DNA of 64,000 nucleotides from Candidatus Jorgensenbacteria bacterium GW2011_GWB1_50_10 (lineage in GTDB: Bacteria; Patescibacteriota; Minisyncoccia; UBA6257; GWB1-50-10), in the NCBI GenBank assembly GCA_001004105.1, contig LCQK01000003.1:46805-110804 (forward strand), read 5' to 3'. The position numbers and the translations under genes were made by a program. Numbering within the stretch: the stretch's first letter is position 1; each line of letters begins with the position of its first letter. This document shows positions 5,973 to 49,062 of the stretch, in pieces. The notes under the pieces were generated by a model, which was given only the letters and a program-made list of their open reading frames with translations, did not search any database and had not been told where the DNA came from.

Positions 5973-6964
5973 TGGTAAATCCCGAAGCAAAACTTAATCC
6001 GAAGATTTTCGACAAAGACGTGGAAATGAAACCGACGCGGGACGGGTATGGCGATGGTCTGGTTTTGGCTGCTGACCATAATCCTAACGTGGTCGCGCTC
6101 TGCGCCGATTTGACGGAATCAACGCGAGCGGAGGCCTTTGCGAAGAAATATCCAGATAGGTTTTTTGAATGCGGGGTGGCCGAGCAGAATATGGCAACCA
6201 TTGCCGCGGGCCTTGGCATCTCCGGGAAAATTCCCTTCATTTCTTCTTACGCGACTTTTTCGCCGGGCCGGAACTGGGAGCAGATTCGGACGACGATTGC
6301 CTACAACGACTCCAACGTGAAAATCGCCGGGCATCACGCCGGCGTCTCGGTGGGACCGGACGGCGCGACTCACCAGGCAACGGAAGACATCGCCATCATG
6401 CGCGCGATGCCCAACATGAAAGTTTTCGTGCCATGCGACGCGATTGAGGCAAAAAAACTGGTGGTCGCCTCCGCGAAAATATGGGGGCCGGTGTATATGC
6501 GTTTCGGCCGGGAGAAAAGCGCGGTTATCACGACCGCAAGAACCCCCTTTACGCCTGGCAAGGCGGAAATATTTTGGGAATCAAAAGGAAAAATCCAATG
6601 CGCGATTATCGCCTGCGGGATACTGGTCAAGAACGCACTTCTTGCGGCGAAAGAACTGGAGGAGGAAGGCATAAAAACTATTGTTATCAACAACCACAGC
6701 ATCAAGCCGATTGACGAGCAGAAAATCATTGAAGCGGCGGAAAAAGCCGGGGCAGTCGTCATAGTGGAAGAACATCAGGTCTCAGGCGGTTTGGGCGGGG
6801 CGGTAGCCGAAGTTTTGGCAAAACATGCCCCCACGCCCATTGAATTCGTGGGCATGCAGGACACTTTCGGTGAATCGGGCCCGCCCCATGAACTCATTGA
6901 GAAATACGGGATGGGAGTGAGAGACATAAAAGCGGCAGTTAGGCGTGTCATCAAGAGAAGATGA
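5972..6964 (+). CDS. transketolase, C-terminal (pyrimidine-binding) subunit
   Basis: FECGVAEQNM and GPDGATHQATEDIA motifs. The start overlaps the stop of the N-terminal subunit. Confidence 0.9.
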   Translation: MVNPEAKLNPKIFDKDVEMKPTRDGYGDGLVLAADHNPNVVALCADLTESTRAEAFAKKYPDRFFECGVAEQNMATIAAGLGISGKIPFISSYATFSPGRNWEQIRTTIAYNDSNVKIAGHHAGVSVGPDGATHQATEDIAIMRAMPNMKVFVPCDAIEAKKLVVASAKIWGPVYMRFGREKSAVITTARTPFTPGKAEIFWESKGKIQCAIIACGILVKNALLAAKELEEEGIKTIVINNHSIKPIDEQKIIEAAEKAGAVVIVEEHQVSGGLGGAVAEVLAKHAPTPIEFVGMQDTFGESGPPHELIEKYGMGVRDIKAAVRRVIKRR

Positions 6965-8205
6965 TGAAAAGAACCAATGGCTTCACTCTCATTGAACTTT
7001 TAATCGTCATCGCCATTCTTGCCGTCTTCGCAACGGTGACTGTTTTGGTCATCAACCCCGCCGAGCTCATCAGGGCCCGTCGCGACTCCACCCGGCTCTC
7101 CGACCTTAACACCATCAATAAGACCCTGGGCCTTCTCCAAACCGACCAACCTGGCGCCTCTTTCGGCTCTAGCAACAAGGTTTACGTTTCCATCCCCGAC
7201 ACCTCCGCGACCTGCGTGAACCTCGGCCTGCCCGCCCTCCCTTCCGGCTGGACTTACGGCTGTGTCACAACTGCCAACCTCTACAATGTTAACGGCACGG
7301 GCTGGATTCCTGTGAATCTCATGAGCTTTTCCGCCGGTTCGCCCCTCTCCCGCCTGCCCGTTGACCCCATCAACGCCACCTCAACCGGCAACTACTACAC
7401 CTACGTTACCGGGGGGAGTTGGGAGTTCACCGCTTTCCCGGAATCCTCCAAGTACAAAATGGGCGGCGGGAGCGACAAGACATCAGGTGACGGCGGTCCC
7501 TATCCCGAACTTTTTGAAATCGGTTCCAATTTAGCCCTTCACCCGGTGTCCAGAGACACTTCGCTTAAGGGCTATTGGAATTTTGAAGAGGGAAGCGGAG
7601 CGACGACTTATGACTCTTCGGGCGCCGGTAATGTCGGCACCTGGAACGGTTCAGGCAGTCACTGGGCTTCCGGGCGGGTAGGAACGTATGGGGGGCAATT
7701 CAACGGCACGAATGATTATTTGGATGTTGGAAATACAAGCTCCTTAAATATCACGGGCAATATCACTTTTATGGCTTGGGTTTATCTTACTTCTCTGCCC
7801 GGCACTGGCCAATATCGGGTTATCAATCGGGGCGTTGATGGGGGGTTCGGTATGTATGTAGGCGCTGGCGATCATCCTGATGACATAGAATGCGGTATCC
7901 GAACCTCAAATGGAGGCCGAGCGATATCTTCGGACGGTTACGCTTCAAATATTTTAAATATGTGGACACACTTAGCCTGCGTTTATGACGGGTCGGCCCT
8001 TCGTTTGTATGTGAACGGTTCTCAAATTGGTTCGGCGAGCGCCTCCGGAGAAAACAATGTCGGCGGTTATAATACCAGTGTCCGGATCGGATCGGATTGG
8101 CTACCCGGCAAATTTTTTCCGGGCAGAATTGACACGGTCCGCATTTACGACCGGGGTCTTTCAGCCGATGAAGTACGGGCAATCTATGAATCCGCTAACA
8201 ACTGA
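6961..8205 (+). CDS. type IV pilin-like protein with C-terminal LamG (concanavalin A-like lectin) domain
   Basis: Prepilin leader and methylation motif NGFTLIELLIVIAILAV, then a pilin-like core (GWIPVNL...SPLSRLPVDP). The C-terminal part has YWNFEEGSGATTYDSSG...FNGTNDY and a RIDTVRIYDRGLSADEV LamG signature. Confidence 0.8.
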   Translation: MMKRTNGFTLIELLIVIAILAVFATVTVLVINPAELIRARRDSTRLSDLNTINKTLGLLQTDQPGASFGSSNKVYVSIPDTSATCVNLGLPALPSGWTYGCVTTANLYNVNGTGWIPVNLMSFSAGSPLSRLPVDPINATSTGNYYTYVTGGSWEFTAFPESSKYKMGGGSDKTSGDGGPYPELFEIGSNLALHPVSRDTSLKGYWNFEEGSGATTYDSSGAGNVGTWNGSGSHWASGRVGTYGGQFNGTNDYLDVGNTSSLNITGNITFMAWVYLTSLPGTGQYRVINRGVDGGFGMYVGAGDHPDDIECGIRTSNGGRAISSDGYASNILNMWTHLACVYDGSALRLYVNGSQIGSASASGENNVGGYNTSVRIGSDWLPGKFFPGRIDTVRIYDRGLSADEVRAIYESANN

Positions 8206-11893: not shown

Positions 11894-11944
11894 GTTTTTA
11901 CTGGGTAGTCAGTTGTTTTGTTGCTCTATTCTCGCATATAAAAT

Positions 11945-11973
11945 TGACAAGCTTGTATAAATAGGGTATACTT
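11945..11973 (+). promoter_or_regulatory. sigma-70-type promoter of DGR target gene 1
   Basis: TTGACA (11945-11950), a 17-bp spacer, then TATACT (11968-11973). This is about 80 nt upstream of the ATG at 12054. Confidence 0.6.
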
Positions 11974-12053
11974 TAGGGCAGTACAATAATGGTGAGTCTG
12001 CGGGTCTGGTAAATGCCGGACTGGGGGACGAACCACAAAAAGAGAGGTACAAG

Positions 12054-12749
12054 ATGGCGAAAAAGACGGATGAACTGGTGCAGTTTGCGGGCCACTTCCA
12101 GTCGCTCGCGACTGCGGTTTCCCGCAACCTCGAAGAGCGCGGCGTAAACGTTGTTGAGGCAATCGCGGAGGCCGCAAAGCCGCAAGGCGCTCGGGCGGTC
12201 GCGAAGATCGTAGACGCGCTCGCCGAACTCGTTGAAAACGGCAAGCGGGTCGTCGGCGCTCTCAATCTCATCGTGGCCGACATCGCCGTGAAGACCGAAC
12301 TCTTCACAAAAAATTCGTTCTTCGGCGAGGGGAGCCCAGTAAAACTCTACATCTGGGATAACTTCCGGAACTGGGTACTCACGGCTATCCTTGAGAATAT
12401 ACCTGCGTTCCAGGGTATGCTCGTGAAGCACCAACTCACGAAGGGGATGTATGACTCGGAGATTCTCTCCGGACTCGGGCATCCCACGCCGTTCTCACCA
12501 ACCGAGTTCGCGGCTGTCATTCGCGACCTCATCTCCAAGCAATCGAGAGGCGAGGAGGGCCTTCTCCTCACGAACGGCTACGCCAACATCTTCTATGTAC
12601 AGTTGCCTGCCGGCGCAGGCGGGGAAGATGCACGCGTGGTCGCGGTGCGCGTGACCTGGAACGCCGGGGACGACGACTGGCACCTGGACGCCTACGGCTT
12701 GGACGACGACGGGTGGGGTGACGGTGTCTGCGTGTTCTCTCGCAGCTGA
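12054..12749 (+). CDS. DGR target (variable) protein 1, 231 aa, unassigned family
   Basis: GC-rich ORF whose last 37 codons are the VR. It has no signal peptide or TM segment, and an SD-like AGAGAGG lies upstream of the ATG. A paralog lies at 48342..48932. Confidence 0.85.
   Translation: MAKKTDELVQFAGHFQSLATAVSRNLEERGVNVVEAIAEAAKPQGARAVAKIVDALAELVENGKRVVGALNLIVADIAVKTELFTKNSFFGEGSPVKLYIWDNFRNWVLTAILENIPAFQGMLVKHQLTKGMYDSEILSGLGHPTPFSPTEFAAVIRDLISKQSRGEEGLLLTNGYANIFYVQLPAGAGGEDARVVAVRVTWNAGDDDWHLDAYGLDDDGWGDGVCVFSRS
12602..12623. repeat. decayed copy of the 20-bp palindrome (17/20 with a 2-nt insertion) inside target 1, read as LPAGAGG
   Basis: GTTGCCTGCCGGCGCAGGCGGG lies 9 bp upstream of the VR. 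The paralog has a 6-codon shorter segment at this point (PEDGP versus LPAGAGGEDAR). Confidence 0.6.
12632..12743 (+). repeat. DGR variable repeat VR1
   Basis: 112 bp with 99/112 identity to the TR. All 13 differences lie at TR adenines. Confidence 0.9.
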
Positions 12750-12782
12750 TCTCGGATTTTCGGTCTCTTGGCAATAGTAGTG

Positions 12783-12823
12783 CGCCCCGTTCGAGTTCTT
12801 CGGAACTTGGACGGGGCGTTTTT
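12783..12823 (+). terminator. hairpin with UUCG loop plus T5 downstream of VR1 (intrinsic terminator and/or DGR target-recognition hairpin)
   Basis: 16-bp stem (12783-12798 pairs with 12803-12818, two G-U pairs), loop TTCG, then TTTTT. It starts 40 nt after the end of the VR. Confidence 0.7.
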
Positions 12824-12998: not shown

Positions 12999-13110
12999 AC
13001 GCGTGGTCGCGGTGAACGTGAACTGGAACGCCGAGAACGACGACTGGAACCTGAACGCCAACGGCTTGGACGACGACAGGTGGAATGACGGTAACTGCGT
13101 GTTCTCTCGC
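12999..13110 (+). repeat. DGR template repeat (TR)
   Basis: Non-coding and rich in AAC codons in the VR frame (encodes ...VNVNWNAENDDWNLNANGLDDDRWNDGNCVFSR). It is the adenine-bearing partner of VR1. Confidence 0.9.
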
Positions 13111-13125
13111 CGCTTACCTTTTATA

Positions 13126-13470
13126 TCAGTTCTTTGGGAGCTGTTTTAGCCAACCGCCCAGCATTTTTCCAACTTCGTCAACTTTTCCAGAAAGCGCGGC
13201 GTATTTTTTCGTGTCCAGAGATTTGATTTGCCAGGCAATTTGGAGGAAAAATTTTAGTGAGTCAAGTTTAAAAGAGGAATTCCTGATTTTTGCAAACCGT
13301 TCGGCTGGCGTGAGAGGGGCGGCTGAGAAAATTTCTTCGATAATATCCAAGAAAAGCAAATCTACTTTTACGCCGAGAGTATAGCGCGAGGTTTTGGGAA
13401 AATGAGGCGCGAATTCTTGCCAAAGCGTGTAGGCCGCGATTAGTTTCTGAATAATTGGCAGTTCATTCCG
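13126..13470 (-). CDS. avd: Avd-like accessory variability determinant (four-helix-bundle / 23S-IVS protein family); start codon unresolved
   Basis: The reading frame encodes NELPIIQKLIAAYTLWQEFAPHFPKTSRYTLGVKVDLLFLDIIEEIF...KYAALSGKVDEVGKMLGGWLKQ, a typical Avd pattern. There is no in-frame ATG, GTG or TTG upstream of 13359. An ATG at 13519 is out of frame by one base across a G9 tract. Confidence 0.7.
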   Translation of the reverse strand, partial: RNELPIIQKLIAAYTLWQEFAPHFPKTSRYTLGVKVDLLFLDIIEEIFSAAPLTPAERFAKIRNSSFKLDSLKFFLQIAWQIKSLDTKKYAALSGKVDEVGKMLGGWLKQLPKN

Positions 13471-13472
13471 TC

Positions 13473-13481
13473 GGGGGGGGG
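13473..13481. repeat. homopolymeric G9 (C9 on the avd strand) tract
   Basis: Nine consecutive G, 18-26 nt upstream of the RT ATG and inside the 5' region of avd. Loss of one base would fuse the ATG at 13519 to the avd frame. Confidence 0.9.
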
Positions 13482-13498: not shown

Positions 13499-14482
13499 AT
13501 GAAAATTCAATTGAGCCATAAATTCGAAGATATTATTTCACTGGAAAATCTTTTGGAAGCATGGCGAGAATTTTTGCGCGGCAAGAGAAATAAAAGAGAC
13601 GTTCAGGAATTCTCATCGCGTTTAATGGATAACATTCTATTACTTCACAGCGAACTTCGCAATAAAACCTACAAGCACGGGAAGTACGAAGCCTTTAACA
13701 TCTCCGACCCCAAACCGAGAAACATCCACAAAGCCGCCGTCCGCGACCGCCTACTTCATTACGCTATTTACAGGGTTTTATATCCGTTTTTTGATAAGGT
13801 ATTCATCGCCGATTCTTTTTCCTGCCGTTTGGGAAAAGGGACGCACAGAGCCATCAACCGCTTTAGAACTTTTGCTTATAAAGTGAGTAAAAATAATACC
13901 AAAACCTGCTGGGTTTTAAAGTTGGATATTAGGAAATTCTTCGCGAGTATTGACCATGAAATTTTGATAAAAATTCTTGAGGAATACATACCCGACCAAG
14001 ACATTATCTGGTTGCTGAAGAAAGTGATAGAAAGTTTTTATTCGACCGAACCCGGCAAGGGCCTGCCTTTAGGCAATTTAACCTCCCAGCTTTTAGTAAA
14101 TGTTTACATGAACAAGTTTGACCAATTTGTGAAACACAAGTTCAAGGCCAAGTATTACGTGAGATACGCCGATGATTTTGTGATTGTGTCGAAAAACGGA
14201 ATATGGCTTGAAAGTTTAATTCCGAGAATCAGCGAATTTCTAAACAGAGAATTGAAGTTAAAACTTCACGACGATAAGATATTCATTAAAACTTTAGCTT
14301 CGGGAGTAGATTTCCTTGGCTGGGTTCACTTTCCGGATTACCGAGTTCTGCGAACCACGACCAAAAGAAGAATGTTTAAAAGAATCAAAGAACATCCCGC
14401 GCCGGAAACAATAAATTCTTATTTGGGATTATTAAGGCACGGGAACGCTTATAAATTAAAAAGAAAAATTATTGCTGAATAA
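13499..14482 (+). CDS. DGR-type reverse transcriptase
   Basis: 327 aa. The N-terminus reads [20 protein letters not shown]. Motif 4 [20 protein letters not shown] carries the SQ typical of DGR RTs, and the catalytic motif is [11 protein letters not shown]. There is no maturase or endonuclease extension, and the gene is visibly AT-rich. Confidence 0.9.
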
Positions 14483-18165: not shown

Positions 18166-19651
<1,486 letters not shown>

Positions 19652-19779
19652 TATTCTCTTCAGAGAGAGTAATAGTCGATTGCAAGATTGCTGACTGCAG
19701 GGTTCGTAATTCAGAATTCTGCAATGAGCAATTAGCAATAAAATTAGAGGTGTTAGTCGTGGAGCCTGAAGTCACGACC

Positions 19780-20359: not shown

Positions 20360-20440
20360 TTTATTCAAGTAAACCTAGGTTGCATACCCCCTGTGGATAA
20401 GTGCACTATCCGGGAGGGGTTAATTTGATATACTAAAAGA

Positions 20441-21038
20441 ATGAAAAAAGGTTTTACTCTTATCGAGCTTCTGGTCGTTATCGCCATTTTGGCGGTTCTT
20501 GCGACCGCAGTGGTCTTGGCTATCAACCCGGCCGAGCTCGGCCGAGCTCATTCGGCAGGCGCGGGATTCCACGAGAATCTCGGATTTGGCGGCAATAAAC
20601 AGCGCCATCGCTCTCTATTTGTCGGACATTACTTCTCCCGGCTTGGGTGGTCCGAATGGTGCTTCCTGCACTAACGCTGCCCGTTGCACTTCTGGGACAA
20701 CCGAATTTTTCTCGGCGAGCATTGGGAGCTGCGGGACAAACGCCACGACCACTGTTGACGGCAACGGCTGGGTGTCGGTTGATTTAGCGGACATCTCGAG
20801 CGGTTCGCCGCTCTCCCGTCTGCCCCTTGACCCCAATAATGGCCAAGGAAGCGGCGATTGCGCCGCCGATGGCACGACTATTTGCTTCTACGCCTTCGGC
20901 TGTAATGGCACGAACTACGAAATTAACGCGGTAATGGAGAGCACGAAATTCGCCGATGACGGCGGTGCCGCCGTTGAAGATACGGACGGCGGGGACCAAC
21001 TGGATATCTACGAAGTAGGGAACAATCTAGCCCTATAG
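20441..21038 (+). pseudogene. type IV pilin gene A, frameshifted by a 10-bp tandem duplication
   Basis: MKKGFTLIELLVVIAILAVLATAVVLAINPAEL runs in frame 1. GGCCGAGCTC is then duplicated (20530-20539 and 20540-20549), and the pilin continues in another frame (IRQARDSTRISDLAAINS...EVGNNLAL*). Removing one unit restores a pilin of about 195 aa. Confidence 0.8.
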
Positions 21039-21043
21039 CTTCA

Positions 21044-21596
21044 ATGAAAAAAGGTTTTACTCTTATCGAGCTTCTGGTCGTTATCGCCATTTTGGCGGTT
21101 CTTGCGACCGCAGTGGTCTTGGCTATCAACCCGGCGCGTTTCTGACATTGCCGCGGTTAATAGTGCGGTTATTCTTTATCTTGCTGATGTTAGAACTCCT
21201 GGCTTAGGCGGTCCTAATGATGCGGCCTGTTCTTCGGCAACGGAACGTTGCACTGCCTCAAGCACAACAGCCAGGAAAACCGGCGGCGGTTCTTGCACCA
21301 CGCATAATACATCAACTATCGTTGACGGCAACGGTTGGGTGTCGGTTGATTTTTTGAATATTTCTTCGGATTCACCGCTATCTCGACTGCCATTCGACCC
21401 GAATAATGGGTCAACTATCTGCGGAACAGGCGTTAATGCTTGCTACTACTCATTTATTTGCAACGGCACAAGTTTTGAGATAAATGGCGCGATGGAGAGT
21501 ACTAAATTTTCTAATACTGGCGGCTCTGACGTGGAGTCCGATGATGGCGGCAATCAGGCAGACCTCTACGAGGTAGGCAACAAGCTGGATATTTAA
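21044..21596 (+). pseudogene. type IV pilin gene B, frameshifted by a deletion of about 32 nt
   Basis: The first 92 nt are identical to gene A. After INPA, the region coding ELIRQARDST is missing (1 nt in place of 33), which gives a stop at 21140-21142. The rest of the pilin (RVSDIAAVNS...EVGNKLDI*) continues in another frame. Confidence 0.75.
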
Positions 21597-25342: not shown

Positions 25343-26430
25343 TGAGGGGCTTTACTCTTATAGAAGTTTTAATAACGGTCGCAATTATTACAGCCGTTTC
25401 CGCGGCCGGTTATGTCGCGTTTTCCAAGTTCAAAGGTTCGCAAGCCGTTGAGCTCACAATGAACGAAATTACGGCCGTCATAAAGGACGTCCAAAAAAGA
25501 GCAGTGACACAGCAGGACGGCAAGCAATGGGGGCTCCGTTTCACTAATTCAACGTCAACCACGCACAGCTATCAGGTTTGGAGCGGTCCGAGCTATGCTT
25601 CGGGAACGATTAGCAGGACCTATTACCTCGGTCGCGGCACGCTCTTCGGCAACCCCGCCGACGATCTGAATGTAGACGAAATTTTCTCGGCGATAAGCGG
25701 GAAGCTCTTGGAGACAAGAGTCATTTCTTTAATAAATCGAAGAAAAGATGGTGTTGTCGGCGACATAATTCTTACTTCCCGGGGCGCGATTACAACGAGA
25801 AAAGAGAGCGGTCTTGTCGGCTATTGGCATTTTGACGAGAGTACAGCAACAACGACTTATGACGCTTCGGGGTTTGCCAATGCCGGCACGCTCACCAACG
25901 GTCCGGCATGGCAATCGGCGTCTAATTGCAAGGCGGGGACATGTTTGAGTTTTGACGGGACGAATGATTATGTGAATGTGATTGATTCAGCCTCACTCGA
26001 TATCACTGGCGCAATCACTGTTAGCGCTTGGGTATACGCGGATAGTTACCCCTCTACTTATCCAACGGTAGTGGCAAAAGGAAACTCCGCAAGCGCTTGG
26101 GAGCTTGACGTGAAGAATGATGGAACGATCGAATGGGAAGGGTTTATCGGTGGTACTCAAAGGATTTGCAATGGTGGCTCATTTAACCTTAACCAGTGGG
26201 TTTATATTGTAGGCCTATTTGATGGTAGCGACATGAAAATATTCGTTAATGGTTCAGAGGTGAAGTCATGTTCTTTCCCAGGGGTGTTAGGTACAAATAA
26301 TTCTGCCTTGGAAATCGGTTCCAGAACCAATGGAGGCGCCGTTTGGGACGGTTTTATTGATGGAGTCCGTATCTACAACAGCGCCTTGAGCGCCCAGGAA
26401 ATTTTGAATTTATATAATGATTTAAAATAA
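25342..26430 (+). CDS. prepilin-type pseudopilin with LamG domain
   Basis: MRGFTLIEVLITVAII leader and methylation motif, then GLVGYWHFDESTATTTYDASG...FDGTNDY and GVRIYNSALSAQEI. Confidence 0.8.
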   Translation: MRGFTLIEVLITVAIITAVSAAGYVAFSKFKGSQAVELTMNEITAVIKDVQKRAVTQQDGKQWGLRFTNSTSTTHSYQVWSGPSYASGTISRTYYLGRGTLFGNPADDLNVDEIFSAISGKLLETRVISLINRRKDGVVGDIILTSRGAITTRKESGLVGYWHFDESTATTTYDASGFANAGTLTNGPAWQSASNCKAGTCLSFDGTNDYVNVIDSASLDITGAITVSAWVYADSYPSTYPTVVAKGNSASAWELDVKNDGTIEWEGFIGGTQRICNGGSFNLNQWVYIVGLFDGSDMKIFVNGSEVKSCSFPGVLGTNNSALEIGSRTNGGAVWDGFIDGVRIYNSALSAQEILNLYNDLK

Positions 26431-46251: not shown

Positions 46252-48228
46252 ATGGGTCAATTTCAAATCACAAAAACATTTCAGCCGGACGGTGACCAAC
46301 CAAAAGCGATAAAGGCGCTTGTTGAAGGGCTAAATTATGGTTACGGAAACCAGACGCTTTTGGGCGTGACCGGTTCGGGCAAAACCTTTACGGTTGCAAA
46401 TGTCATCGAAAAAATCGGCAAGCCCACACTCTACATTGCTCACAACAAGACCCTGGCGGCCCAGCTCTGCAATGAGCTCCGGGAGTTTTTTCCGGGAAAT
46501 TCTGTCCATTATTTCGTCTCCTACTACGACTACTATCAGCCGGAGGCCTACATGCCCATAACTGACACTTATATCGGCAAGGAAGCGATGATTAACGACG
46601 AGATAGACAAGTTGCGCCACGCGGCGACAACTGCGCTTTTGACGCGCAATGACGTGATTGTGGTCGCGTCCGTCTCCTGCATTTACGGCCTTGGCGCGCC
46701 CGAGGTTTACGCCGAGAATATCTTCCATTTCAAAGCCGGCGACAAAGTGGACCGTTCCAAATTCGTGCGCAAGCTCGTGGAATTGCAGTTTAAGCGGACG
46801 AGCGCCGACCTGAAACGCGGCACTTTCCGGTTGCGGGGCGACAATTGGGAAATCATGCCGCCGGATCGGGAAGTGATTTACAATCTGGAATTGGAGAAAG
46901 GAAAAATAAAAACCATTTACGAAATTGACCCGGTAAAAGGTTTTCAAAAGGAAAAAACACCCACCCTTTCTGAAATTTACATTGCCCCCGCTAGACATTT
47001 CATCACACCTTTACCGGAGCGCGAGCGGGCGATTAAAGCGATTGAAGCGGAACTTGCAGAGCGGCTGAAATATTTTGAAAGGGAGGGAAAACTGCTTGAG
47101 GCCGAGCGGCTGGAACGCCGGACAAGAGGGGACTTAGCCATGATTCGGGAAATCGGCTACTGCAACGGCATTGAGAATTATTCGCGCCATCTCTCCGGCC
47201 GCCGAGCTGGTGAGCCGCCGGAGACGCTGCTTGATTATTTTCCAAAGGACTTCTTGACCGTGATTGACGAATCGCATGTTACTGTGCCTCAACTTCACGG
47301 TATGTACGAGGGTGATGCCTCGCGGAAGAAAACGCTCATTGAATTCGGTTTCCGGCTGCCTTCCGCCGCCGACAATCGGCCGCTTATGTTTCCGGAATTC
47401 GAAAGCAAAGTGGGGCAGGTAATTTACACTTCGGCGACCCCGGGCCCGTACGAGAGGAGAAAAAGCAATCAGATCGTAGAGCAAATCATCCGGCCGACCG
47501 GTTTGGTTGACCCGGAAATAGTTATTCGACCGGCTCGAGGCCAGGTTGACGATTTGATTCCGAGAATTAAAGAAAGAGTAGACGTGAAAGAGCGCGTTTT
47601 AGTGACCACGCTTACCAAGCGAATGGCCGAAGATTTAAGTTCTTATTTGGAAGAGCAGGGCATTAAAGTGACGTATCTCCACAGCGACGTTAAAACTTTG
47701 GATAGAATCAGGATTTTGACGAATTTGAGAAGAGGTAATTTCGACGTTCTGGTCGGCGTGAATCTGCTCCGCGAAGGACTGGACCTGCCGGAAGTTTCGC
47801 TTGTCGCGATTTTGGACGCGGATAAGGAGGGGTTTCTGCGTTCGGAAACCTCGCTTATCCAGACCATTGGCCGGGCCTCCCGCAATGTCAGTGGCCAAGT
47901 TTTGATTTATGCCGATAACATTACCGGTTCGGTAAAGCGCGCCGTGGATGAAACTGAACGCCGCCGCAAAATCCAGATTGAATATAACTTGCGTCACGGC
48001 ATCACGCCGAAAACAATCGTGAAGAAAATCACCGACATCGTGCCGGTCGAGGAAATCCTGAATTTGGAAATGAAACCCTTGCCGCGCTCTAAAGCGGAAA
48101 TTAAGAAAATAATCGCCGGAAAAGAAAAAGAAATGAGAGAAGCAGCAAGTAGACTTGATTTTGAACTCGCGGCAGTTTTAAGAGATGAAATTAAAGCTTT
48201 ATCTAAGAAGGCGGGGAAGCAGTTTTGA
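46252..48228 (+). CDS. uvrB: excinuclease ABC subunit B
   Basis: [20 protein letters not shown] start, [10 protein letters not shown] Walker A, and a C-terminal UVR domain [15 protein letters not shown]. Confidence 0.95.
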
Positions 48229-48341
48229 GAAGTTGACAAGATTAGATTTTTGTGCTAAAGCTTAAACTAGCACGAACTGGCAACCTAAAGCCCCAACGAA
48301 TGTTGAGGGTGAGAGGAAACCATAACAAGGAGAGGCAAAGA

Positions 48342-48932
48342 ATGATGAAGGGAACGAACGGACTCGAGTGGCTTGCGGACCGCTGGCAGTCGGTTGCGAC
48401 TGCAGTTCCCCGCCGCTTTGAGAATCGTGGAGTTAGCGGCGGGGAGGTAATTGCCGCCGTAACCAAGCCCCAGACCAGGAGTATTGTGGTCCAGACCGAG
48501 CCCTTTGCTAAGGACTCGTTCTTTGGGGAGAGCGGTCCCGCGGAGCTCTGCATTTGGGACAACTTCCGAACCCAGGTGCTATCAGCAGTTTCCGAGACCG
48601 TGCCCGCGTTTCGAGGCACGCTCACGAGAACTGAGCTTGAGGAGCACATGGGGGACTCCGAGATTTTCGCCAACGGGACATCCCGGCCGCTCCTCTCGCC
48701 GGACGATTTTGTTGCGGTCGTCCGTGACCTCATCTCCCGCCAGCCGAGAGGTGAGAGGGGAATCCTTCTCACAAACGGGGATGCCAACATCTTCCATGTG
48801 CAGCCGGAGGATGGACCTGTGGTTGCGGTGCGTGGGCGCTGGCGCGTTGGTCTCGGCGGTTGGAGCCTGCGCGCGTATGGCCGGGACGACGTCAGATGGC
48901 TCAAAGGCCACTGCGTGTTCTCCCGCGGCTGA
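48342..48932 (+). CDS. DGR target-family paralog 2 (196 aa) with diverged VR-like C-terminus
   Basis: The start at ATG 48342 follows AAGGAGAGG, and [22 protein letters not shown] aligns with the MAKKTDELVQFAGHFQSLATAV start of target 1. Shared blocks include IWDNFR, PAF.G, VIRDLIS.Q.RGE.G.LLTNG.ANIF.VQ and the C-terminal CVFSR. Confidence 0.8.
48819..48926 (+). repeat. VR-like repeat (VR2), diverged from the TR at both adenine and non-adenine positions
   Basis: Aligns codon-for-codon with TR 13003-13110. By hand count there are about 19 mismatches at TR adenines and about 17 elsewhere. The conserved ends are GTGGT.GCGGTG and CTGCGTGTTCTC.CGC. Confidence 0.6.
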
Positions 48933-48965
48933 CCCATCTACCGCAGTTCTCGCAAAGTAGCACAG

Positions 48966-48998
48966 ACAGGCCGCAAGAGGTTTCCTCTTGCGGCCTGT
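48966..48998 (+). terminator. perfect 15-bp hairpin downstream of VR2 (terminator and/or DGR-type hairpin)
   Basis: ACAGGCCGCAAGAGG TTT CCTCTTGCGGCCTGT, then TCCTGTTTTT. It starts 40 nt after the end of VR2, the same spacing as at VR1. Confidence 0.7.
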
Positions 48999-49062
48999 TC
49001 CTGTTTTTACTAAACTTGAGATACTACCCCTATATGAACCAAAAAGAGGGGCAGTTTCTGTT

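Follow-up and report, generated by a model that had tools for sequence, protein, structure and literature searches.

A putatively soluble, lectin-like target protein of a diversity-generating retroelement in a Candidatus Jorgensenbacteria genome

The 64,000-nt stretch of DNA analysed here (positions 46,805–110,804 of contig LCQK01000003.1 from Candidatus Jorgensenbacteria bacterium GW2011_GWB1_50_10; in the following, the window, numbered from its first letter) contains a diversity-generating retroelement (DGR) with its characteristic parts, namely a variable repeat (VR) in a target gene, a template repeat (TR), an accessory avd gene and a gene for a reverse transcriptase (RT), and the differences between the two repeats show the adenine bias of such elements. 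Taking all observations together, the explanation that we consider probable is that the target gene encodes a soluble protein of two parts with a lectin-like domain, which is diversified by the adjacent DGR. A preliminary description of the same DNA had regarded this gene and a paralog as DGR targets of open fold and had seen hints that they belong to a horizontally acquired module, and our analyses bear on each of these points.

Results

The last 115 nt of the target gene (VR1) recur as a near-repeat 3' of the gene (Table 1). The two copies differ at 14 positions, 13 of which are adenines in the second copy, which is therefore the TR of a DGR. The TR translates to VNVNWNAENDDWNLNANGLDDDRWNDGNCVFSR and contains nine AAY codons (Y, pyrimidine); altogether 17 codons are variable, allowing for 1.9 × 10^15 possible proteins, and adenine substitution cannot create stop codons. 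VR1 and TR share the adenine-free, invariant 3' end CTGCGTGTTCTCTCGC, which resembles an initiation of mutagenic homing element and is followed by a GC-rich hairpin. Besides being a terminator, this hairpin could possibly serve as the stem-loop for target recognition by the DGR, and the retrohoming role envisaged for such a hairpin derives from Bordetella phage BPP-1. The residue pattern W.NA..DDW... that had been read from the VR is present, apart from one surplus dot after the first tryptophan. None of the six GAC codons in the TR is altered in VR1 (12672–12680, 12702–12710 and 12720–12722; codons 207, 208, 217–219 and 223) despite their mutable middle adenine, whereas eight of the nine AAY codons are changed, which suggests either selection for aspartate at these positions or position-dependent mutagenesis. 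A hypothetical protein of Candidatus Jorgensenbacteria GW2011_GWA1_4x, UY26_C0003G0267, has the same sequence as the 231-aa product (100% identity). With the element order TR-(avd)-RT, the cassette has the B3 architecture that accounts for 90% of the DGRs in the Candidate Phyla Radiation (CPR; Wu et al., 2018, PMC5758913).

The paralog, located far from the cassette, had likewise been described as a DGR target, a view that its sequence contradicts. Between its repeat (VR2) and the TR there are 39 differences, merely 19 of them at adenines and 20 at C, G or T, and the repeat is identical in P0014, the near-identical protein from a second assembly. The 20 non-adenine differences and the shared VR indicate that retrohoming of the paralog ceased long ago, and it appears to be an old, fixed copy instead of a current target. 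In-frame alternative starts are present at ATG 48301 (giving 210 aa; this start was called for P0014) and GTG 48252.

Neither paralog had a match in sequence searches of Pfam, NCBIfam, PHROGs, PADLOC or PDB, in agreement with the earlier statement that the family cannot be assigned. A word-indexed search retrieved 40 relatives, none of which has a name or a Pfam domain, and a Pfam search with ten longer relatives matched no domain. By hidden Markov model (HMM) search, 3,885 clusters (50% identity) were detected at E ≤ 1e-3 and 2,651 at E ≤ 1e-10. Among species-representative genomes, the domain occurs mostly in Patescibacteria (Paceibacteria groups, Saccharibacteria, Doudnabacteria, Berkelbacteria and Moraniibacteriota), a few of the metagenome-assembled genomes carrying it are labelled as other phyla, and a single family locus was present in 2.9 million viral contigs. 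An RT gene 0.85–1 kb downstream with an antisense avd gene in between was found at 4 of 6 gene-called loci and at about 38 of 80 genome loci, i.e. roughly half, and the remaining genomic copies are orphans like the paralog in the window. In the four loci that were examined closely, the mismatches between VR and TR fell on adenines in 24/33, 17/19, 8/14 and 20/22 cases. In three unrelated genomes (L001, L003 and L004), the family gene or the DGR cassette adjoins pheS/pheT, which may be a preferred neighbourhood or chance.

Structure prediction divides the target into two parts. The full-length AlphaFold2 model calculated with the family alignment (predicted local distance difference test, pLDDT, 88) consists of three helices (residues 1–67) followed by an alpha/beta domain; the helices span residues 2–28, 33–41 and 43–67 with pLDDT values of 66–84. 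The model of the domain alone (66–231) reached a pLDDT of 94.7 and a predicted template modelling score of 0.90. In domain numbering, it comprises a long strand and a small subdomain, a strand at 54–63, helices at 69–75 and 84–96, and strands at 113–118, 130–138, 143–150 and 161–165. In both models, the elements assigned by DSSP follow the order beta-alpha-alpha-beta-beta-beta-beta that is known from C-type-lectin-like domains, and the VR is predicted to form the last three strands of the domain and their loops.

Table 1. Features of the DGR cassette and of the paralogous locus (window coordinates)
Feature	Position	Strand	Remarks
Sigma-70-like promoter, TTGACA-17-TATACT	11944–11972	+	11/12 matches
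Shine-Dalgarno-like motif AGAGAGG	12041–12047	+	6 nt 5' of ATG
DGR variable (target) protein gene	12054–12749	+	231 aa; first start codon past upstream stop
N-terminal helical region	12054–12248	+	aa 1–65; poorly conserved across family (alignment A2)
Conserved alpha/beta domain	12249–12746	+	aa 66–231; predicted divergent C-type-lectin/FGE-like
Variable repeat VR1	12632–12746	+	last 115 nt of target gene; differing codons 199–225
GC-rich hairpin and T-run, terminator	12782–12819	+	17 bp
Template repeat (TR)	12999–13113	+	near-repeat of VR1
avd accessory gene	13126–13461	-	Pfam bAvd
G9 homopolymer	13473–13481		avd/RT divergent intergenic region
DGR reverse transcriptase gene	13499–14482	+	RVT_1, E 1e-26
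Orphan paralog	48342–48932	+	196 aa from ATG 48342; between uvrB and uvrA; 45% identical to target
Degenerate VR-like repeat of paralog	48815–48929	+	
Hairpin terminator 3' of paralog	48965–48999	+	

Hydropathy scans and inspection of the N-termini confirmed that both paralogs lack a signal peptide, a lipobox and transmembrane (TM) helices. The maximal 19-residue Kyte-Doolittle means were 1.57 for the target and 0.49 for the paralog, neither of them at the N-terminus, and a lipobox cysteine was absent from the N-terminus of both proteins. By the same means, no signal, lipobox, TM segment or pilin-type N-terminus was found in 39 aligned family members. Two relatives have a different organisation: P0044 (379 aa) has a Sec-type signal peptide and two domains, and P0041 (926 aa) consists of five tandem domains. 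Elsewhere in the window, type IV pilin-like genes are located at 6961–8205, 20440–21596 and 25819–26036; one pilin-like pair has a 100% identical 93-nt N-terminal segment (20440–20532 and 21043–21135), and LamG-like repeated segments are common to 7570–7784 and 25819–26036.

Both genes are indeed GC-rich, with a GC content of 0.60 for the target and 0.62 for the paralog compared to 0.49 for the window, and of 0.75 and 0.71, respectively, at third codon positions. Across 80 genome loci, the target domain exceeded the flanking DNA by 11.4 GC points on average, and the difference was positive in 79 of them (Wilcoxon p 1e-14). The VR contains 11% A and 66% GC; adenine loss from the VR as the sole cause of the excess was rejected because the core outside the VR also exceeds the flanks, by about 9 points. 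The coding strand of this core is C-rich and T-poor. In the 29 complete cassettes among loci L008–L087, the mean GC content was 0.566 for the target domain, 0.418 for avd, 0.408 for RT and 0.446 for the flanks; relative to the flanks within the cassettes, the target was thus higher by 11.9 points, and avd and RT were lower by 2.8 and 3.8 points.

The Shine-Dalgarno (SD)-like leaders reported for both paralogs were also found, with a spacing of 6 nt to the ATG in each case; the paralog has the motif AAGGAGAGG at 48327–48335. From the position of its putative promoter, the target would have a leader of about 74 nt. The promoter of the paralog, TTGACA with a weak TAAAGC, failed the promoter scan, and leader length and start codon are ambiguous. 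As stated earlier, most genes in the window have no SD signal: SD-like tetramers precede 11 of 53 crudely called genes, which is about chance level, and the 3' tail (19637–19651) of the 16S rRNA (18166–19651) reads GGAUCAAUUAAAUU in place of GGAUCACCUCCUUu in the model, with AUUAA at the site of the anti-SD sequence CCUCC; the usual bacterial sequence at this site is GGAUCACCUCCUU. The strongest upstream signal is TATAA(T) 7–12 nt before start codons (12 of 53 genes, 0.74 expected), indicating that leaderless transcripts are the rule in this genome. A GGAG(G)-type motif 5–10 nt before the start was present in 7 of 8 gene-called family loci, compared to 14 of 70 neighbouring genes. Since the host has no anti-SD sequence, the motif of the target cannot work by canonical pairing. 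The motifs AAGAG, AGAGA and AGAGG occur 3–22 nt before starts five to six times (0.6–1.1 expected), upstream of 5106, 6961, 12054, 24131, 29728, 48342, 48988 and 60165, and UCUCUU is found at 19656–19661, just 3' of the end of the 16S model. Pairing of AAGAG/AGAGG with this UCUCUU as an alternative SD interaction was rejected, because the enrichment of the motifs (p about 5e-4) did not withstand correction for 1,024 k-mers.

Translated from a CTG codon, avd covers positions 1–104 of the 104 positions of the NCBIfam profile DivGenRetAVD, with 62.7 bits against a cut-off of 80. No in-frame ATG, GTG or TTG occurs before 13359, corresponding to residue 35 of the domain, and the Avd profile aligns from the CTG at 13461, which is probably the start codon. 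In about half of the inspected related cassettes, CTG, TTG or GTG with a Pro codon directly after it is found at this position, and TTA or CTA in several others, which suggests weak near-cognate initiation. Translational frameshifting of avd via the C-run from an upstream ATG was considered and rejected: the upstream ATGs stem from RT codons on the opposite strand, and just 2 of 23 are in frame, so that a near-cognate CTG, TTG or GTG start fits better. The RT is 60–73% identical to the RTs adjoining family members in other genomes, across distant CPR classes.

The probable avd start codon and the ATG of the RT gene are separated by 37 nt, and the G9 homopolymer in this gap is the sole G/C run of at least 7 nt in the window. 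A repeat at this place was found in 26 of 31 related genome cassettes, as a C/G run of 7–13 in 23 and as a dinucleotide repeat, (CA)n, (GA)n or (CT)n, in three, as well as in 61 of 73 metagenomic cassettes, as G7–14 in 57 (mode 9–10) and as (GT)8, (GT)12, (TC)17 or (TG)18 in four, i.e. in about 80% of such cassettes overall. The run usually ends 1–3 nt before an A/T-rich, -10-like hexamer, and the RT start follows 15–30 nt further on. Run length varies among near-identical loci (G11/G8/G11 in L012, L016 and L038; G10 versus G8 in L134 and L140), although these differences come from assemblies and may be sequencing errors at homopolymers in individual cases. The run looks like a contingency repeat for phase variation in a bidirectional control region, which might act as a switch for DGR activity. 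An exact-pattern scan of JGI metagenomes for the avd/RT junction of the window gave no matches, and no paper linking DGRs with such repeats was found in the literature searched.

Discussion

The interpretation that we consider probable for this locus implies a small soluble protein, in which a variable helical N-terminus precedes the conserved domain. The retroelement would reverse-transcribe the TR RNA, inserting random bases opposite adenines, and the resulting cDNA would replace VR1. In this way, up to 17 codons, nine of them AAY, could be recoded, so that a ligand-binding face could occur in about 10^15 variants, with the scaffold held by W202, W209, W221 and the terminal C-V-F-S-R. By analogy to Mtd and TvpA, we infer that the variable residues make up a binding surface, carried by a scaffold that is stable and lectin-like.

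Several observations weigh against this interpretation. The first concerns the current activity of the element: three other assemblies from the same aquifer have an identical 2,429-nt cassette including the VR, so that no VR polymorphism between samples was found in these consensus sequences. The second concerns localisation. In the absence of a Sec or lipoprotein signal, the target protein most likely acts in the cytoplasm or exits by an unconventional route, and CPR DGR targets without TM or other recognisable domains have been noted previously (Roux et al., 2021, PMC8144416). However, the signal peptide of P0044 and the five domain copies of P0041 imply that localisation differs within the family, part of which is probably extracellular and multivalent. 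These two relatives would also fit display of the target outside the cell without a signal peptide, for example via type IV pilus or secretion machinery, which is abundant in these genomes; like other DGR targets, it would then bind to surfaces of host cells or phages. Pilus or type II secretion genes adjoin the cassette in two other loci (L005 and L007), pilin-like genes occur in the window, and surface proteins make up the majority of cellular DGR targets (Roux et al., 2021). Nevertheless, we regard external display of the target as rather unlikely, considering that the 39 aligned members lack any of the corresponding N-terminal or membrane features and that pilus genes are common in Patescibacteria, so that their proximity may be due to chance.

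The remaining counter-evidence concerns the fold, which is assigned from predicted models. Pfam and PDB profile searches and hhalign did not yield matches to the Lectin_C, FGE-sulfatase (FGE, formylglycine-generating enzyme) or DUF1566 profiles, and PDB profile searches with the family alignments A2 and A4 found no lectin. In hhalign, the family profile matched the FGE-type DGR target of Bacillus phage BalMu-1 with a probability of 0.1%, and Foldseek comparison of the predicted model with the PDB gave no significant match (best E 0.65; a human C-type lectin-like domain, CTLD, at E 1.3). The same sequence and structure searches would be expected to fail for a truly new scaffold, for which it also speaks that the VR terminates in CVFSR, instead of the GFR-type ending of CLec1 targets (CLec, C-type lectin), and that the CPR VR classes UVR1-6 were left unassigned (Wu et al., 2018). 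We judge a new scaffold to be unlikely all the same, because the order of secondary structure elements and the C-terminal position of the VR agree with known targets and because FGE-like domains align with the model over more residues than plain CTLDs do, a behaviour that DGR targets such as TvpA would lead one to expect. The immunoglobulin-like class of DGR targets did not fit either, as an immunoglobulin beta-sandwich carrying the VR was not found. Uncharacterised VR domains from CPR bacteria were predicted to be new C-Lec variants (Roux et al., 2021), and there is a reasonable likelihood that residues 66–231 belong to the CLec/FGE structural class, albeit as a very divergent member. The earlier view that the fold is open thus holds for HMM and sequence assignment, but it is weakened by the lectin-like order of elements in the AlphaFold2 models. 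Under the lectin-like interpretation, the target is an unusual variant of a scaffold known for DGR targets and not a new kind of system.

Both the high GC content and the SD-like leader, which had been taken as hints that the module was acquired horizontally, are features that the gene family has inherited. The occurrence of the GC excess in 79 of 80 loci and of the SD-like motif in 7 of 8 loci means that neither indicates recent transfer into this genome. A donor composition would shift the whole cassette in one direction, whereas the target is above and RT and avd are 3–4 points below the flanks, so that an explanation by donor composition fails. Transfer over long time scales is plausible: the genes adjoining the cassette vary from genome to genome, and RT identity is 60–73% across distant classes. 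That the target genes are a recently acquired module, betrayed by high GC content and SD-like leaders in a host whose 16S rRNA lacks CCUCC, is very doubtful: the GC difference to the window, the different housekeeping genes adjoining the cassette in different genomes, the RT identities and the extensive horizontal transfer described for DGRs (Wu et al., 2018) could be cited in its favour, but the GC excess recurs in nearly all hosts and is limited to the target gene among co-inherited genes, the SD-like motif persists even next to genes that have none, the locus is not flanked by integrase, transposase or phage genes, both paralogs are GC-rich at merely 45% identity, and the viral contigs contained just one family locus.

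Combining the possible switch in the avd/RT gap with the probable target structure leads to a more far-reaching proposal, in which Patescibacteria would possess an intracellular system of hypervariable receptors on a lectin-like scaffold divergent enough for a new VR class, with diversification gated by the hypermutable poly-G or dinucleotide repeat. Such phase variation over targeted hypermutation would constitute a two-layer form of bet-hedging, but we consider the proposal as a whole speculative and improbable at present.

Published surveys list numerous CPR DGR targets as having no recognisable domain, and for one such family its size, the boundary of its domain and a testable hypothesis on its fold are now available. 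The family comprises thousands of clusters, has no Pfam model and occurs in most of the Patescibacteria classes examined. If it is true that the proteins act intracellularly, the binding diversity generated by DGRs is not limited to surface display in these organisms, whose genomes are tiny. A GC-rich target next to AT-rich RT and avd genes is a consistent compositional signature of the family, as are strong SD-like leaders next to genes that are mostly leaderless; this GC excess could aid in finding DGR targets and cautions against the use of GC content as evidence for transfer.

Among known systems, Mtd of Bordetella phage BPP-1 has the same mechanism of diversification and a lectin-like domain with the VR at its C-terminus. 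However, Mtd is the trimeric tip of a phage tail fibre, whereas the family described here is cellular, and avd of BPP-1 is located on the RT strand, whereas avd in the window is on the opposite strand. Animal CTLDs such as those of CD72, dectin-2 and thrombomodulin resemble the target domain in the order of strands and helices, with 81–99 residues aligned at 2.9–4.1 Å. TvpA (Treponema denticola variable protein 1, PDB 2y3c) and other FGE-sulfatase-type CLec1 targets likewise have a C-terminal VR that is diversified from AAY codons and an invariant scaffold with Trp, Gly and a terminal aromatic-x-Arg. They differ from the target in the window, which has no PF03781 match, hardly any hhalign similarity to the phage FGE-type target, a domain of about 165 aa with a helical region before it and a VR ending in CVFSR instead of GFR.A; moreover, TvpA is a lipoprotein, whereas the target lacks such a signal. 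With the CPR/DPANN clade 2 or B3 targets, including UVR1-6 (Wu et al., 2018; Roux et al., 2021) and archaeal AvpA, the target shares the host group and the TR-(avd)-RT cassette, as well as small size, a C-terminal VR and the lack of TM segments, signals and known domains.
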